From contig ML978121.1 in NCBI GenBank assembly GCA_010015805.1, positions 2,418,001-2,482,000 on the forward strand: a DNA stretch of 64,000 nucleotides. The letters run 5' to 3'. The translations under genes and the position numbers were made by a program. Numbering within the stretch: position 1 is the stretch's first letter; the number at the start of each line of letters is the position of its first letter. Source of the DNA: Rhizodiscina lignyota (Eukaryota). Below the pieces are notes generated by a model that was given only the letters and a program-made list of their open reading frames with translations, ran no database searches and had not been told where the DNA came from. Positions 45,248 through 59,155 of this stretch are shown here, in pieces.

Positions 45248-46776
45248 TCATTGCGTCTTCTTCGCTCCTTGCGGTTTAGGTGGCTCGCTATATAGCCAGA
45301 CCGCGCAGAAGACTATCCAGCCCACAACCGTGACACCAATGCCCGCAATCCATACCCATGCACCACTAATCGCCCAACTGCGTGGGTACTCGTCATGTGC
45401 AAAGTGTCTCACTGTAACCTGGTTCTTTTCATCCACTGTCATATAAAATGGACGCTTATAGTTTACACGGAAGTTGAAGATGCCGTGTTGGTCAGGGAGG
45501 GTGAACGAAGTAGAGAAGAGGGTCGAGTTCGCGGTTTGCGAGACTGGTGTGAGAGGAAGGCGGTGGAACGGCGAAAGCATGGTGAATTCGAGCTGGAGAG
45601 CGTCGTTTTCTGGGACTTCGAAGGGAGTGAGGTGTGTGTGGGAGTATTCAGATAGCTCGATAGTGTAGGTCTGTAAGAGTATTAGCATGTTGCCCTCTCA
45701 AAGAGATGATATGAGACATACGACATCGTTCTTGATTCTATAAATCTTGGGATTCAGTTCAGATTGGCTCACGGCTGTACTGTTGGAGCCAGCCTCCCCG
45801 GTACCCTCATTCAGGTGGTGGAACAGTCGTCCGACCTTTAGCACACCGACCTCCTTGAAGGTCCACTCTGTGAGCTGCTTTGCAAATTCGCGATTCGCCG
45901 TCTTGGCATTTTGGCCCTTGCTTCTGACTTTCGCGTCGAACCATGTATCCTCAAGCATCTCCACGGAGCCCAGAACAGTGAGCCTCGCCGAGTTACGCGC
46001 CTGGATGGCGGTGACGAGAGCAATTTGCTCCCCAGAAGCGAACAGATCCTCAAGACCTTCCGAATCATCTTTGGGATTGTAGCTATAAGCGGTGCCTGGT
46101 GCACGTAGGATCGGCGCAAGAAGTGGGCTTCCATTTCCAAGCGTCTGACCGACCGCGCGAGGGACTGCAATAATGCCGTCACCCCCGAAGAAATTCTTCA
46201 CGTCCGGTCGCAGCTGTTTCGGTGATGGAAGCAGCAAAACATCATGCTTCTCCGACGCCGAATTCGAGTCGTAGTTGAAGTGGTCAACGACCAACGCATT
46301 GCGGTCGTTAGGGAGGTGGATGTCGAGTTCGAGGAGAAGGGAGCTGATTTGATTCGGTGTCGGGGAGTTTCCTGAGAGTGCGAGGAGGATATTGCCCTCT
46401 GCTTTCATGTAGTCGAGGATGAGATTCGGAGTAAGGCTTGGCCCATATGCTTTCGATGTTGGGGGAAAGAGGATGACATGGTCGTATGCCCGTTCGCCGT
46501 GTTGAAATAGTGAGAGTTTGTCATTCTTTGGCGACTCGAAAGATATTTTGAATCCTCGTGCTGTTTGAACCCTTTATTAGCATTAGATCCCTAATTGAGG
46601 ACTTGAGCTTGGGCTTGATTATTCCAAAACTGACATTCTAAATCTCCCCAGAAGCTTGAATACTGGTCTTTCGAGCCTGCATCCTCCAGAACAACCAGCA
46701 ATCGGCTCCCCGTGAAGCTCACAGCAGAGACCAAGCTCCAGAATAGAGCCAAAAACGAGAATAAAAGCCAGCGCAT
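45248..46776 (-). CDS. WBP1: Oligosaccharyltransferase beta subunit (OST48)
   Basis: Signal peptide MRWLLFSFLALFWSLVSA, RLLVVLED, QARNSAR, LEFTMLSPF, LPDQHGIFNF, C-terminal TM and KKTQ ER-retrieval signal; two introns. Confidence 0.95.
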
Positions 46777-49319: not shown

Positions 49320-50711
49320 CTCTGTTGATTTGCAAAATAAGAGGCGTGAAGTGACTGAACCGCCAAAGAGGTTGTGGTTTGGGAAGAGGTCAAGTGTGGT
49401 GTTCCTTGTTGTTTGTTTGGAGAAGGAGGAATCCGAAGAGAAGAGGGAAGTTTTTATGCCAGCGGTGGCAAAGAGTGGGGGTTAGAGTGCGAAATTGGAG
49501 GGTGACTTTTGAGGCTTGTGTAACACTACCGAAATGAGGTTCACGTGTTAGGAGCGGGTTCGGCTGCAGGAGAAGACGGTATTAGAGCCGAATACCAGTG
49601 TCAGGTGTCGGCATAAACACGCTCGGCTCGGGGTGATCGCTTTCGTAGAACTGCGGAGAAGTGTGATGGAGCTCCCGATGGTGTTGTTAATGACGCTTGG
49701 AAACTTGGCCGGAGGGGATACTCAAACGCACTGTTTACGACTTGAAGGGCACGGTCGAAGGTGGGGAAGCACTTCAAGCTGTACGTGTTTATTCTGAAGG
49801 AGATTTCACTAAGTGAGAAGAACCATCAAACGGACTCTAGTGATGTTCGTTGTGATGCTCGAAATCTATGAGGGATCTGGCTACTTCAAGAAATCTCAGA
49901 GGCTAACCCAATATCTGGGGTTCAGTTCAGGTATCGCCAGAGTGATTTAGAGGATAGCAATTCAAGCCTTCAGCTTCTTGTTCAACAACAGAGAAGGCTA
50001 TCGTGAACCGTAGCCGAGTAGAGTCTACTCAATGCGGAGAAGTAGTACGCACCTCCCAGCCATGTTCTCATCGAAGCCGGGAATTCCACAAGGTCTTTTT
50101 ACTCAAACTAGTCCTCTAACTCGACATGATGATTCAGAAGCAGTTTAGGCTCTACGAGAGTGAATTTGAGGCTACCTCCTGGATCCTCCAATCTAGTCAT
50201 CGAATATGCATAGCATGGAACTCACTCAAATCAGCGACCGTACGCTCCATAGCCCGACTTTGGTCTAGACTGCTGCGTATACTACGACGAATCAGCAGTT
50301 ACCATATTCTGCCAAGTTCTACAAAGCTGCACACTGAAGAAGAGATAATGCATCGAGAGGAGATTTGAAATTGTGCGGAATACTGAAAGGTGGTTTGAAT
50401 ATAGTGGGAATGTCGCAGGTATTGACAGATTGGCGGCTTGACTTTAACATTAGCGCTCAATAAAGACAGCTTATAGTCAGTGCACGTTGGGGTTGAGTTT
50501 GACAAGCGTGTCATTCTGTGTGTATACACGCTATTTATGCCCTATTGTCGGGCAACAATTGCGAAGTCGTAAAGGCCACCACTCCAGAGGAGCGCGCCGA
50601 CGGGTATCATGCGTTAAAACCAAACCAGAACCCCCTTCAAGCTGTGAAACCTCCTCCCAAAAAGCCAACCAACCAACCCCCCGACATACCACCACCCCAC
50701 CCCCGCCAGCC

Positions 50712-51159
50712 TCAAAACGTCGACCATTCGTACTGGTTGCGGAACTCCGGGGTCTGCCACGGTGGCAGGGACCGCAGAGTTCCGCCCGGCTGCTGCGCGG
50801 CCTCCTCGTTCTCGTCTCGCCCTGCAGGCGGCGTCTGGGTTGCTGCGGGATCTTCTTCGGCCGCTTGCGCACCCTTGCGAAGGGCCAACAGTCTGATCTT
50901 TGCGCACACGGCGCGGACACGGGCACCGACACGGTCGAACAGGGAGCGGAGCGGCGCGGCGTAGTCGCCTAGGCAGGCGCTGAAGGCGGAACAGCCGCCT
51001 TGCTCTTCATCTTCCCCCTGCGAGTTAATAAGAGGAATCGTGTGAGGTCGGAGAGTATAACTATACAAGAGCGCGCGGGAGATCGAGCATTATGTCCCAA
51101 GGTGGGTCATCATACTCGCCGCTCTCCAGGAGCGGCGTCTCCTCCGTCGCGGACGGCAT
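50712..51159 (-). CDS. Hypothetical small protein starting MPSATEETPLL
   Basis: ATG in CAA-rich leader context. A short gtatga...gtatag intron (about 51115-51061) joins it to the GC-rich 50712-51068 frame; the branch site is weak. Confidence 0.4.
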
Positions 51160-51593
51160 GGTTTGTTCTTGTTGTGGCATTGTTTGGTGTTGGTGTTGGT
51201 GAGGTTGGAAGATGGTAGTGAAAGTGATTGAAGGAAGGAGAGTGTCGAGAGGGGAGAAGATTTAATTTAAGGAAGATTGCGGTAGTGACGTAGCCAAAAA
51301 TTGTCTGCCTGACGTCGCACGGCAGTTAGGCAAACACGATTGCGCCCGTGATGGGAGTCCACCAGACCATTTCGTGTTTCGCAATGCGGCAGAACCGGCA
51401 TGTGATTGAGCCCGCGTCCTGGAGTGCGCGCTCTGTTGCGGTGACCGTGGAGAGACGCGTGCAATGATGAAGCGATGCGGCAGGTAGAGATGGAAGCCCG
51501 AATCGAGAAATAGAAGCTCTGCTAAGACTTACCGTAGAGAGTATTGACTCTAGCAAATAGAGAGAAAATTGAAAAACAAAAAAACAAAAAAGA

Positions 51594-51720
51594 GAGTAGG
51601 TTCTATCCCCGCGGGATTCGAACCTACTCCCCATACCTAACAGCCCTAACTATATCCGGTATAGCTAGAGGTGTTCAGGAGGAAGAATGCTCCAGGGCGT
51701 GACCGCCGAGCTATTCCACC
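51594..51720 (-). ncRNA. tRNA-like / Pol III-type structured element (pseudo-tRNA, SINE head or novel ncRNA)
   Basis: Minus strand reads GGTGGAA-TA-GCTC...GAGC (D-arm and A-box), a long hairpin, GGTTCGAATCC (B-box) and a T-tract. The acceptor stem cannot close. Confidence 0.55.
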
Positions 51721-52925
51721 TTTCCGATCCGTTAGCTACAAATTAAAATTTTGTATAAATATGCATAGTTGCTATCAATCAGTTTAATCGGCCGCCGCTT
51801 GGTCCTTGGATCGCTCTCAGTTTTGCATTGCCAACGTGATATTCTACTCCGAAAGGCCAAAATAATAATAATAATAAATAGGATTTTAAAAATGAAAGAG
51901 AAAATCCTTACCGCCGTAGTAAAAGTAAAAGTCAATAGGTTTCGGTTCGATTCTCACGGCCAGACTGATCGGTCATGCATCTTCGCCTTTCCTGGTCTGC
52001 TGTTGTAATTTTCTTTGGCCTCTAGCACTCTCTACAGTTCGTGCAGTCTATTGAAATTATATACGACTTTATTCCGCGATAGATCGTTTTGTTTGTGGAG
52101 GGCCTTGTACGCGTGCGGCGTGGCACAACGCATTTCTAACGTTGGTTTGGGCATCCTGATTGTTTGGAGCCGTTTCCTTGTCCTCACATTTGTTCGCTCG
52201 GCAACAGGCAAGAAACTGTCCAAAGGCTCAAATGGCGCGCCACCGGGGCACATCGTTCTCAAAACGGACGCATGCCGAAGGACAGCCCGGGACCTCTATC
52301 GAAACGCTCTACCATCTACGGCCAAGAGGCCAATGTGACGACTAAAGGAGTCTCATTAGTATCATCTCCAAGCTCTTTCAAGTGACACTTTGAAGAGAAG
52401 TTCTGTTGTGAGGGACAAAGGAGATGGTCGAGCTGAAGATCGTGGTCATGATTTGCCTCCGATTCTGCACACCACGTATGAATTGAGCGAGATTGTACAG
52501 ATCAGAAGAGAAATATATTAAGAATCACTCGTAAAGCCATTTTAATGCTTATATAACTGCTGTTGGTGCACTGATGGGTTATTAAGATGGGCCATATTCA
52601 GCTTGACATGAGACGAAGTCGTCTCGTCTCGGACTTTACCGACCGTTGCGAAAAGTGGAGACAAGTCTCACCCAATCATCCAAAGACCAGTTCTTGAGAT
52701 TTGGAAAATGCTGCCCTGGTTGAATCGAAGATTCTGTATAGATACTTTTAATTCTCCGTTGGTGTATCACAGTCTCATGAGCAATGCTTCGTCTCTCAGT
52801 GTCTTCTTCCCCTTTACGCCGCGCTATGCATGTCCCGAGCCCCATCCTTCAATCCGAAATCAAATGTTCTCGAAATCATGCCTTGACAATAATGCCAAGC
52901 AAATGCCAGTTTTATACAAAGACTT

Positions 52926-55501
52926 CTATGATCCCATTGCATCTCTGATCTCCTTGACGACGTTCTTGATCCTTGGCTCCTTACCAGTGGCCTCCGCCTT
53001 ACCAAGTGCCTTCTCAACCTCAAATACCTCTCTCGCAGCGCTCCTGAAATCTTCGCCGAGGCTCAAGAGCGTACCCACGCCGACTAGCACGCGATACAGC
53101 CCCTCTGAATCCCCCACGCTAGCCGCCATTCTGATCAACTCATCAAGTAGAGTCAGCGCACGGTCCGCATCATGGTTCGGCGCCGACTTGGTCAACAGCA
53201 CCGCGTAGTTGATATACAACGTGCTAATTGCAACGACCAAGTTGCGGTTCGCTGCACTGCCGGCTCCAATAGCAGCATCGACATGCGGCTTGATGAGATC
53301 ATGAATCTTATCGAACTCGCCGTCCGCAATGAGACGGCCCTCCTCGGTGGTGAAGAGGTTTGCGAGTGCACGGATCGAGAGCATGGTATTATTGACTGGA
53401 GAGTCCGTTCTGAAGACGCCAGAAAGTGCGAGAAGATCGACGAGAGTCTTGTCCCCATCGCTCGTTCGAGTCGCAGTCGCAGGTGAAGCTGCGGTGAGGA
53501 GACGGAGCAGATCGAGACCAGGGAGACGTTTATCTTGCGGCCACTGCGTCGCGAGCTTGACAGCGAGATCGATACCTTCGTTGAGTGCCGGTGAGTTGCC
53601 AACGCTAGCACTCGAGCTCGAAGCTATAGGCTCTAGCTGCTTCGCTAATGCTCCTAGAACAGCAATCTCGGGGCTGCTAAGAGTCAGGTCTCCTGAGCCA
53701 GAGTCGAGCAGTTGTTTGTTCAATTCCTGCACCTTTTTATTTATGGTAGCAAGATTGGCAGAGGTAATAGTGAGGTATTGCGTTTGCGGGAGCATCTTTG
53801 GCCTGGATGCTGGAGCTGGTTGCTGAGGCGCTGCTGCCCCTGCATCACCTGGCCGATATCGTGACTCCGTTCCCCATGGATCTGAACCTGGGGTCTGCGT
53901 TTGTCCAGCTTGACCAATCGTTGCACCTTGGGTGTTGGTGACGATGAAATTCGCGACCTGGTCGAGATAGGATATTGGAAGCTCATTGTCCTCGATGAAT
54001 TTGCGCGCAGTTTCGTATGGATTCGATGAAAGGTTGTAAGGTAACTTCAACGGCGGCTTTCCATCCTCAATGTCCACGTCAAAGACGTAGTCGTAGTCTT
54101 TTCCTTGGTAAGTAATCTTCCGTCCACTACTACCAGCTGCATCGACGACGGTTCCCACATTGATCCATTGATTTGCGGCAGTTGACCACTGATGAGCGGA
54201 AACATTGCCATTTGCTTCTCGGATCATCTGCACCTGGCCTTCTTTCGTGCCCGATCGTTGCTGGAGGAACTCCGGACCCGGCAGGTTTTCCTTGTTGATG
54301 TCACCTACTGACTGTTGAGGGATCGAGGAGGCTTTCACCGACTCCTCGAACGCCCCTATCGCTGCCGCATCGGCTTGCCTCTCAGGAGATCTACTGAAGA
54401 CACGCACGATCTTGTCACTAGCTCCAGTGACGATGTCTCCATTCTCTTTGCATGCTGCGACTGACCACACGGAGATTGCAGGATGAGTGATCGTCTGAAC
54501 GCAGTCTGTGCCTTTCCATATCCGGACCGTTCGATCTTCAGAGGAGCTGGCGATCTCACCACTTGGTAGTGCAGCTAAACTGTAGATGAAGTTTTCGTGC
54601 CCGTAGAGTTGCGCCACTGGATGTCCATCGAGCGTCCAGAGACGGACTACGGAGTCGTTTCCGGCCGATGCGAATGCTGCTCCGGATGGGTGGTTCGGTG
54701 GAAGGCGACACAACGCCCGTACGACATCGTCACTCCCTTTTATTTGCCGTATTAACTTTCCAGATATATGGAACACACGTATTATCTTGTCGGCGCAGCC
54801 TATACAAGTTAGCTCGAGCTCTTTTACGCGTTACACATGACGCCACAGCTTGCAGAAAATGCTAGCGTGGTACATACCTGTAATTACTGTCTCTTTGTCA
54901 AACGCAAGGACAGCCCAAACGCTACCTTCGTGTCCCCTCAGTACGGCTGCAGTGTCCCATTTGCCAACCACCCAAACTCGAGCTTCAGAGTCCCACGAGC
55001 CTGACACGATGAAGCTGCCATCCTCACTGACGTCCAGCGCGCATACGTTGCCGGCGTGCCCCAATAGTAGAGCGTCTGCGTTATCCTGCGGCGTCTTGCC
55101 AGGCTGCCGTACTTCTATAATTGCATCTCGATCGCCAGACACTATTAGGCCTTCACTGTGGCCGGAGGAGGGTGGGAGGTAGGTTAGGGCGTTGACGAAC
55201 GCGTTGCCATGGGATGTGAGTGTGTCATCATATGTCGGCGGGTTTTGTTTGACTAGCTTCCATAATCGTACAGTAGCATCTCGCGAGGCAGACAGAATCG
55301 CCGATGGATTGGGGAAGACTACGCCGCGAACCTATGAGCGAATGGTAAACGATATCAGCCGCCGAAGAGGAAGGAAAGCCACATGGAGCTCAGAGACATG
55401 CAGCTGTCACTGACAGCCTAAAGCAAGGCAGATGCAATACGAGAGTTACTCACATCGTCTTCGTGGCCTGCCAACGAGGCCGACAGCCTGTAGTCACCCA
55501 T
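52926..55501 (-). CDS. DOA1: Ubiquitin homeostasis protein Doa1/Ufd3/Lub1 (WD40-PFU-PUL)
   Basis: MGDYRLSASLAGHEDD|VRGV, WD40 repeats, PFU motif YDYVFDVDIEDGKPPLKLPYN and PUL motif RLPGLDLLRL; introns about 55453-55332 and 54877-54801. Confidence 0.95.
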
Positions 55502-57451: not shown

Positions 57452-59155
57452 ATGGCATTGAATACCACGACTGCCCCAAATGTCGAGCTCATGTCTGCTC
57501 TTTCGACGTTAGTGTCCAAATATCTTATGAATGACCGAACCATTTGCTGACTGGTTTTGCACAGGTTGCTTGAGGCAGGGAAATACTCAGACCTGACTAT
57601 CAAATGCGGCGCGCGTAAATTTGCGGTTCACAGAGCTCTCATCTGCTCACGATCCGGATTCTTCGACGGAGCTTGCAGCAACGCGTTCAGAGAAGCCCAG
57701 TCTGGAATAATTGACTTGAGCGAGGACGACGAGGAAGCCGTGGAGCACATGGTCAATTATTTCTACCATCTGGACTATCTATCACCACCAAAGTCGAAGA
57801 GGCGCTCGCGCGGATATTCTACTGCCACGAACCCGATGTCACCAACATCGCCAACCGAGTTCCGACCATACGATGCTGTATTTCCTCGCAAGAAGCTCAA
57901 CCTGGCATTCGTAGAAGATCCTCTCCTCGCAACAGCGGCAGCAAATATCCTCACTCCCACTCAGCCAACTGCTGATCCATTTCCTGACGCCTCTCAAACG
58001 ACTCCAGCAGCCTCTGTTCCATCGTCTGCATTTCACTCACGCAACATCTCCTTGGCGTCGACCATATCGACCGCATCGAGTATGTCGAGGCCACTTACGC
58101 CTCCAAACGACGGAAGCCCACTCGATCTCCGCCTGAAAATTCCTCCTTCGGTAGACTCGGCAGTAGGCGATCTTGAAGCGGATCGACTCGAAGAAACCAT
58201 CGACGAGGTGGAACCAGACACGCAGCACCCATACCTGGTGACACACTGCAAGGTCTACGCAATCGCAGAGAAGTGAGTACCCACGTTTCACATATCATTA
58301 TCGCCCTGCACTTCCCCACGCCGCATCAATTTCTTCTGTTCTTCGTTATCTCCAACACGTGCTGTGTTCCATTCCAAATTCCCCTCTATCCACATTCCTG
58401 TTTCACAACACAACTCCACAAAATTCCGCAGTGGGCGGCGCCAAACGCACGCAAGGCTGCTTGCAGATGCAACAGTGCCGAAAGGTGTCACTACAGCGCC
58501 AGGGAAGCGTCTCCCTGCGCAGTGCATGAACTCATGCTGGGACATGCCTGCGACGCCTTTGCGGCGGCAAATCCGCGATTCCAGAGCCCTGGTCTTTTCG
58601 CACCCCGCCTCTCGTCGCGTGTTTGAGAGTGGCACGTCGGGACTTGCAGGGATCAGAGCACCGAGCCCTCAGCTGGCCCCGGCAGGAATAAGCGCGCCAA
58701 TCAGCGCGCTGCTCCCGCCAACTGCCACTGTTGTTCGAGAGGTCTCACCTCAGCCTGGGCAAAACAGTTTCCTCAGCTCTAAGAGATGCAGTCCTGAATA
58801 CTCGTCCAGTCATCGCTGTTTATTTTCGCCTCGCTAAAATGAGCATTGTTGTCGAGAGCTTACGCTAACCACTTACCTCTTCAGGTATGGCATCGCTGGC
58901 CTCAAGTCGCTTGCTCGCGCCAAGTTCGGCTCGCAAATGGCTGTTCACTTCAACTCGCACGAGTTCGCAGACGCCATTCAGGACGTATACGATACCACTG
59001 TCGATGGAGATCGTGGCCTTAGGGATGTCGTGATCCAGACATTCCGCGAGCATCCTGAGCTTGCACATCGCAAGGACGTCGAGTACGCTGTGAAGGATAC
59101 CCCAGGCCTCGCATGGGAGCTGTTCCGCGTTGGCTGGGGCCTCCCCATCGTTTGA
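57452..59155 (+). CDS. BTB/POZ-domain protein, 3 exons, with a 612-nt second intron
   Basis: YSDLTIKCG...VHRALICSRSGFF...FREAQSGIIDL...YFYHLDY and KVYAIAEK|YGIAGLKSLA...DRGLRDVV. Introns about 57509-57565 and 58273-58884. Confidence 0.9.

Follow-up and report, generated by a model that had tools for sequence, protein, structure and literature searches.

The minus strand of the 64-kb window (the whole stretch of DNA that was analysed) carries a 130-nt unit at 51720-51591 with an A-box-like motif, an exact B-box and T6, T7 and T5 runs, and this unit is a repeat with at least eight distinct copies in a data set of approximately 35 Mb. Our main reading, to which we give about an even chance, is that the copies are self-contained RNA polymerase III (Pol III) units of tRNA origin, which form a small family scattered over the genome and represent a selfish or neutral short interspersed element. 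A selfish or neutral nature is more likely than that of a gene family with a cellular job, and the main reading can be pictured as a "retired tRNA gene" that multiplied. A tRNA-derived, Pol III-type identity is suggested by the motifs, with which it agrees. In the predicted structure the cloverleaf is lost. Separate complementary strands pair with the 5' acceptor strand, with what was the anticodon region and with the T-arm, which turns these arms into three hairpins, and the B-box lies inside the one next to the terminator.

tRNA-derived repeats confuse tRNA annotation, and in fungi they are poorly catalogued beyond a few model species. Judged from its motifs, the family described here would represent a compact route from a tRNA gene to a unit that is no longer a tRNA yet is still a complete Pol III unit.

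Sequence organization of the unit

Positions within the unit are numbered along the minus strand, with i=1 at 51720. The features of the unit and of its upstream region are as follows.

51782..51789, minus strand: upstream block GATTAAAC, at about -69 to -62 from base 1, found by comparing loose ends of contigs by eye
51754..51761, minus strand: TATA-like TATTTATA, at -41 to -34 from base 1, from the sequence
51681..51720, minus strand: hairpin 1, -18.1 kcal/mol when folded alone
51703..51713, minus strand: A-box-like TAGCTCGGCGG, in agreement with the A-box consensus at 7 of 9 specified positions
51636..51679, minus strand: hairpin 2, about 19 pairs with a CCGGA loop, -17.3 kcal/mol when folded alone
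51591..51632, minus strand: hairpin 3, 13 + 5 pairs, -26.9 kcal/mol when folded alone; also inverted repeat I1
51614..51624, minus strand: B-box GGTTCGAATCC, exact match, 78 nt after the A-box
51572..51591, minus strand: T6, T7 and T5 runs, putative Pol III terminator

An earlier note on this DNA had described a tRNA-like start followed by a rewired body, and all the elements that it listed on the minus strand are present in the sequence. The tRNA-style start GGTGGAA-TA-GCTC...GAGC-A occupies i=1-33 and holds the D-loop hairpin GGCG-GTCA-CGCC at i=14-25. The two arms AACACCTCTAGCTATA and TATAGTTAGGGCTGTT, of 16 nt each (i=46-61 and 67-82), pair at 15 of 16 positions, two G-U pairs included. 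The B-box claimed to match the consensus is indeed exact (51624-51614), GAGTAGGTTC pairs with GAACCTACTC around the inner ATCCC/GGGAT stem, and the T-tract consists of the three runs at 51591-51572.

The A-box-like motif was scored against the A-box consensus TRGCNNAGTGG. Together with the B-box and the downstream T-run it gives the unit the motif layout of a type-2 Pol III gene, with an internal A-box and B-box. The spacing of 78 nt between the boxes is longer than in intron-less tRNA genes, and the body of the unit has no internal T4 run. The B-box alone is not significant, as one match with at most one mismatch was found and 1.19 were expected. A B-box-like word, GGTTCGATTCT, is located in inverted repeat I2 (51944-51954). 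It lies on the plus strand, opposite to the unit, and 220 nt upstream of it. It was considered as a second copy nearby and rejected, since its alignment to the unit was at chance level; local alignment of the unit with the 400 nt on either side gave scores of 9-10 (null mean 9.8).

If the unit is expressed as these motifs suggest, TFIIIC would bind the A and B boxes, TFIIIB would sit on the TATA-like motif, and Pol III would start at 51720 or a few bases before it and stop in the T6 run at 51591-51586. The predicted product is an RNA of 130-135 nt with a U tail. The TATA-like TATTTATA would be placed at about -30 if transcription begins a few bases upstream of base 1, and the block GATTAAAC may be either a promoter element or a piece of the repeated unit.

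Relationship to tRNA genes

The earlier note had stated that the unit is not a standard tRNA and that its acceptor stem cannot form. Both statements agree with the searches of the standard tools. ARAGORN found no tRNA genes over the 64-kb window. With introns allowed, neither the default threshold nor the 95 setting produced a call, and the 80 setting returned a very poor pseudo-call with a mostly unpaired acceptor stem. No Rfam family matched at gathering scores, and at E ≤ 10 there was no tRNA match in either 701 nt or 161 nt of sequence. The canonical tRNA call that the note had named as evidence against its reading was therefore returned by neither ARAGORN nor Rfam. The low Rfam scorers (E 0.4-8), which comprised bacterial terminator-like motifs and miRNA hairpins, stayed far short of their gathering scores; as a true identity they were rejected and read as generic matches to a hairpin followed by U.

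A working tRNA gene of non-canonical layout, interrupted by several introns or rearranged in its order and missed by the standard finders, is a very improbable explanation. The first 33 nt do resemble an acceptor strand plus D-arm, and the B-box is perfect. However, no strand complementary to GGTGGAA is found 3' of the T-arm relic, so that no 7-bp acceptor stem is available, and the would-be anticodon loop counted from the D-stem reads CCTCCTG, with C rather than U33 at position 33. The D-loop is 15 nt long. The intron-aware ARAGORN results speak against this explanation as well, and so does the absence of any match to the Rfam tRNA model (RF00005) at E ≤ 10. One of the identities offered in the earlier note, a rearranged intron-containing tRNA, was not borne out, given the missing 3' acceptor strand and the blank ARAGORN runs at the default and 95 settings. 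tRNA-derived repeats with non-canonical cloverleaves occur in a subset of fungal genomes, as stated in the available text by the tRNAscan-SE authors (PMC8450103).

Predicted fold

The minus-strand RNA of 133 nt showed a minimum free energy (MFE) of -64.7 kcal/mol, compared to -42.4 +/- 3.8 kcal/mol for 200 shuffled sequences (z -5.89), and none of the 200 shuffles folded as well. In a scan of both strands of the 64-kb window with 133-nt windows at a step of 25 (5110 windows), the unit ranked second lowest, with just one other window as stable, which had a G+C content of 65% against 53% for the unit. The extensive pairing asserted in the earlier note is thus beyond chance. The most stable 133-nt folds of the 64-kb window (-55 to -65 kcal/mol) are located at 58476-58783 on the minus strand and at 50676-50858 on both strands, in DNA with 61-70% G+C.

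The MFE structure comprises three independent hairpins (i=1-40, 42-85 and 89-130) with 51 pairs, six of them G-U, and a mean pair probability of 0.96. In hairpin 1 the relic of the 5' acceptor strand is predicted to pair with i=33-40 and not with a 3' acceptor strand, enclosing the D-stem GCTC/GAGC and the nested GGCG/CGCC hairpin. Hairpin 2 fills the space between the A and B boxes, and hairpin 3 combines the T-arm relic with its near-perfect inverted copy and ends at the T-run. The tRNA-style layout proposed earlier, in which TTCTTC/GGGGAG extends the middle stem, does not hold up as the preferred fold: it reached -50.0 kcal/mol, 14.7 kcal/mol worse than the MFE. A simple terminator scan did not flag hairpin 3, because its internal loop is barred by the rule of that scan.

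The plus strand of the unit folds at -51.3 kcal/mol, so that the minus strand is better by 13.4 kcal/mol. This advantage is consistent with the six G-U pairs and with a minus-strand RNA. A much better minus-strand fold is also one of the points in favour of a functional RNA gene. That alternative, which we regard as possible but doubtful, holds that the unit belongs to a functional multi-copy family of Pol III non-coding RNA (ncRNA) genes with a hybrid promoter made of the upstream TATA-like motif, distal blocks and tRNA-type A and B boxes. The absence of a T4 run within the body points the same way. No known RNA family in Rfam matches the unit, which counts against it.

Copies in the genome

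Contigs of one public run (X1, 35 million letters), which contains the locus (0.97 of sampled words), were aligned to 51300-52000 at a likeness of at least 80%; the alignment passed over 51852-51886 as repeat. Twenty-one contig pieces fell on this stretch, six at 99% identity or more, five at 95-99%, seven at 90-95% and three below 90%. Eight different contigs covered position 51627. The window's own flanks are represented by two contigs with depths of 151 and 152, one of which ends and the other begins inside the unit (51626 and 51694). Two long contigs from elsewhere also end inside the unit: one of 74,336 letters (depth 153.1), aligned over 51593-51697 (105 nt) with nine substitutions, and one of 76,037 letters (depth 152.5), aligned over 51603-51689 (87 nt) with nine substitutions and eight gap letters. 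The summed contig depth along the stretch was as follows.

Outside the unit: 151
51564-51587: 212
51588-51611: 1673
51612-51635 (the bin of the B-box): 2555, the highest value
51636-51707: 1450-1503
51708-51731: 1243
51732-51755: 686
51756-51779: 331
Beyond 51779: 152

The rise is confined to 51588-51779. Summed contig depth is not a copy number, and the 8- to 11-fold rise is a rough guide; the copy estimate therefore rests on the distinct contigs, of which there are at least eight. True tRNA genes may contribute to the depth peak at the B-box. The copy-number check suggested in the earlier note thus showed a multi-copy unit, and the single copy that would have spoken against the note's reading was not what the eight contigs over one site revealed. 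Within the 64-kb window BLAST of the unit found the unit itself alone and no second copy. As a dispersed repeat (21 pieces, eight contigs, long contigs ending inside it) with a putative internal Pol III promoter, the unit resembles a SINE.

These data also bear on the possibility that the unit is a chance mix of box-like motifs and palindromes in intergenic DNA, which we consider the least credible of the readings and already contradicted. In its favour, the B-box alone is at chance level, and so is the second B-box-like word at 51944-51954. Against it stand the fold, with its z of -5.89, no shuffle out of 200 as stable and a rank of second among 5110 windows, and the presence of the repeat with sharp edges in at least eight contigs.

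Edges of the repeat

On the 3' side the repeat stops sharply at the start of the T-run, where the contigs have loose ends at 51587 and 51593 and the depth drops from 1673 to 212 between adjacent bins (51588-51611 and 51564-51587). Read on the minus strand, two other copies continue for no more than about 12 nt before T7 and T7+T9 runs of their own, the sequence there being otherwise unrelated. Likeness among copies that stops exactly at the terminator, with both of the other 3' ends having T-runs of their own, speaks for an ncRNA gene family.

On the 5' side there is no such sharp edge. One contig could be aligned over 51710-51770, differing at five of 61 positions. About half of the additional summed depth ends near 51720-51731, and several copies remain alike to 51751-51770 and beyond. 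The 30-letter loose ends were compared by eye. The loose end at 51751 is identical to the window at 25 of 30 positions after a shift of one base (by eye, not by tool alignment). In the loose end at 51770 the likeness resumes, after an unlike patch of 10 bases, at the 8-mer GATTAAAC (51782-51789), shifted by one base in that copy, and the loose end at 51767 has a version matching at seven of eight positions and lying seven bases further out. By this comparison the TATA-like region appears to be common to several copies and the block near -65 to some, with 30-50 nt of upstream sequence shared among several copies.

A repeat that ends sharply at the terminator but is patchy at its 5' end resembles a selected gene family, and the recurrence of the TATA-like motif (-41 to -34) and of the 8-mer (about -65) at slightly different spacing, as seen by eye, would suit promoter elements. 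For Pol III genes of fungi, at least those of fission yeast, a TATA upstream is normal: in fission-yeast tRNA genes a TATA element at -30 recruits TFIIIB, according to the available text of PMC2040200. However, the upstream 50 nt of one copy are about as similar to the window as the body is (5 differences in 61), which is like copied DNA rather than like separate promoter blocks.

The extension of the repeat past the 130-nt body, to about 51770-51800 in several copies, raises a further alternative, that the unit is a fragment of a larger mobile element with a tRNA-like Pol III cassette, either a solo LTR of the Helenus type (TRIMp3) or a DNA-level repeat of about 200 nt. We judge this improbable. 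Helenus LTRs of 120-323 bp do have tRNA-like A and B boxes, occur in fungi and are often solo, as the available text of PMC10886601 describes. However, neither strand of the unit has TG...CA termini with a flanking duplication of 4-12 bp, and there are no terminal inverted repeats. No second copy and no PBS or PPT partner was found nearby (BLAST against the window, and scores of 9-10 against 9.8 in the 400-nt flanks). Moreover, the available text of PMC10886601 reports fungal Helenus from Pucciniales and a few Agaricomycetes, and not from ascomycetes.

Variation among copies

Divergence among copies reaches 10-20%. Six substitution sites are listed at 10% or more, and hairpin 2 is the most variable part.

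i=87: substitution outside any pair, in a linker
i=54 with i=74: compensatory change, T-A replaced by C-G, with both bases assigned to the contig of depth 153.1 through its depth value
i=52: G instead of T in a short contig with a depth of 359, about two copies; G-U pair broken
i=68: substitution in the copy with eight gap letters around the apex of hairpin 2; degenerate copy
i=94 (51627): A in all eight of eight contigs, G in the window; pair with C125 of hairpin 3 broken

Position 51627 reads C on the plus strand of the window and T in all eight covering X1 contigs. The X1 locus seems to differ from the window at this position, either by a strain difference or by an assembly choice within the repeat.

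Two aspects of this variation speak for a family of RNA genes. The variants listed at 10% or more include none within the first 50 nt of the unit and none in hairpin 1. The compensatory change in hairpin 2 (T54-A74 to C54-G74) hints at structural constraint. On the opposite side are the differences of up to 10-20% between copies, the eight gap letters that one copy has at the hairpin 2 apex, and several pair-breaking changes; working multi-copy small-RNA genes are usually near-identical. The same divergence, the gap letters and the broken pairs at i=52 and i=94 are visible drift, and they favour the main reading of a selfish or neutral element. The variation provides one point for structural constraint and several against it, which is too little to decide.

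Origin and spread

The earlier note had offered a tRNA-derived SINE head as one identity of the unit, and part of this proposal stands, as the sequence has tRNA-type promoter motifs and is a repeat. The notion of a head does not: the unit is complete within 130 nt and has its own terminator, with no body, no LINE-like tail and no supported duplication. A tRNA-unrelated body or LINE-like tail is absent from the unit, which ends in the hairpin of its own T-arm relic followed by the T-runs, and its 3' tail is T-rich, not A-rich. The best direct repeat flanking the one copy examined is 6 nt long (AATTTT). Direct repeats of at least 6 nt were found in 80% of 300 random placements, and since repeats of this length are so common by chance, no target-site duplication is supported.

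The 30-50 nt shared upstream of the expected start are contrary to a retrocopy of a Pol III transcript. Also against retrocopying are the depths of 686 and 331 upstream of the start, compared to 151 outside, and the alignment over 51710-51770 with five differences in 61. The marks examined for a classic SINE and for a Helenus-type LTR are thus absent from the unit. Judging by its motifs, it still appears to behave like a tRNA-derived Pol III element, and one ascomycete is known to have tRNA-derived elements that are low in copy number and cannot be folded as cloverleaves (AfuSINE2; available text of PMC5063351).

Sequence collections beyond this genome were also searched. In metagenomes, the pattern of the 3' hairpin gave no matches, and an A-box...B-box pattern with long spacing gave 60 loci, none of which resembled the unit (blastn, E ≤ 1e-3); few fungal sequences are present in that collection. 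ARAGORN assigned 68 tRNA genes to 49 of the 60 loci, including adjacent tRNA genes and intron-bearing tRNAs, and none to the other 11. A scan of a prokaryote genome collection with 18-mers found 19 bacterial loci sharing little beyond the word itself, and a scan of viral contigs, again a collection with few fungal sequences, found no matches. A literature search with 18-letter words of the unit found no papers, and keywords brought up comparators and nothing on the family. The lack of a relative outside this genome counts against an ncRNA gene family, with the qualification that the collections contain few fungi; these blanks say little because the collections searched are poor in fungi.

Genomic setting

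The unit is located about 1.2 kb beyond the stop of a minus-strand frame with PUL, PFU and WD40 domains (Doa1/Lub1, 52926-54776), and a minus-strand OST48 frame is present at 45698-46408. Both frames begin inside their Pfam profiles, which indicates at least one more upstream exon for each and, consequently, introns in this genome. The closest relatives of the Doa1 frame share 87% and 80% identity; the best named one is from Coniosporium apollinis (71%), and Botryosphaeriales come next (68-69%). The genome is accordingly read as that of an ascomycete, probably a Dothideomycete, and an atlas look-up likewise pointed to Ascomycota. A fungal Doa1/Lub1 protein with 79% identity is filed in NCBI under the bacterial MAG Terriglobus roseus, on a contig of 4.4 kb, and this entry is probably a fungal contamination of the bin.

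The stretch from 47.7 to 53.2 kb has 15 stop-to-stop frames that are 70 aa or longer. None of them scored above the Pfam cut-off, and a coding reading of the unit's surroundings was rejected for this reason. Overlapping open frames on both strands at 50.5-51.0 kb likewise have no Pfam match. An (AAT)n/(ATT)n microsatellite lies at 51861-51877, between the unit and the Doa1 gene.

Significance of the family

Should the copies be transcribed and conserved in sister genera, they would represent a new family of fungal genes for small RNAs, driven by a hybrid promoter. Such an undescribed Pol III ncRNA family would have kept the tRNA promoter and rebuilt the body as three hairpins, with hybrid-promoter expression and a structured RNA or small-RNA precursor as its product; this is a tentative proposal. 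If the copies are not transcribed and conserved, the family would be a modest addition to the low-copy SINE-like elements of fungi.

Comparison with known systems

Ordinary fungal tRNA genes share with the unit the A and B boxes, a T-run terminator, dispersed multi-copy occurrence with unrelated 3' flanks and an upstream TATA of the kind found at fission-yeast tDNAs (available text of PMC2040200). In contrast to them, the unit has no acceptor stem, no anticodon loop and no cloverleaf, its boxes are 78 nt apart, and it is not called by tRNA finders or models.

Several Pol III transcription units combine a tRNA-type promoter with hairpins. The TMERs of murine gammaherpesvirus 68 and the Pol III-made microRNA-like RNAs of Neurospora have a tRNA-type promoter, a tRNA-like start, hairpins and a T-run. 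In the TMERs both boxes reside in an intact tRNA-like cloverleaf ahead of the hairpins, whereas the boxes of our unit lie in hairpins 1 and 3 and no cloverleaf is predicted. BC1 RNA and the ID elements of rodents are also tRNA-derived Pol III units whose tRNA-like part refolds into a stable hairpin, like the unit, and this family contains both a working RNA gene and selfish copies. Unlike the unit, BC1 is mammalian and has an A-rich middle, a separate 3' domain and LINE-dependent, A-tailed copies, and the two have no sequence relation.

Among fungal repeats, Helenus (TRIMp3) resembles the unit in its short repeated part (LTR of 120-323 bp), in its tRNA-like A and B boxes and in the frequency of solo copies, and its tRNA-like part is predicted not to encode a working tRNA, as far as the available text of PMC10886601 describes it. 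The unit differs from Helenus in having no TG...CA ends, no 5-bp duplication, no partner LTR and no PBS or PPT. By analogy, AfuSINE2 of Aspergillus fumigatus appears to be the nearest published ascomycete parallel. It has tRNA-derived A and B boxes with a 5' part that cannot be folded as a cloverleaf, and it is present in low copy (from one to at least four) at lengths of 140-493 bp, the smallest being 140 bp, as given in the available text of PMC5063351. AfuSINE2 exhibits duplications and a tRNA-unrelated region according to the same text, whereas our unit has neither a supported duplication nor an unrelated region. Compared to AfuSINE2 as it is described, the unit is distinguished by its exact B-box, its T-run tail and the upstream sequence common to its copies.
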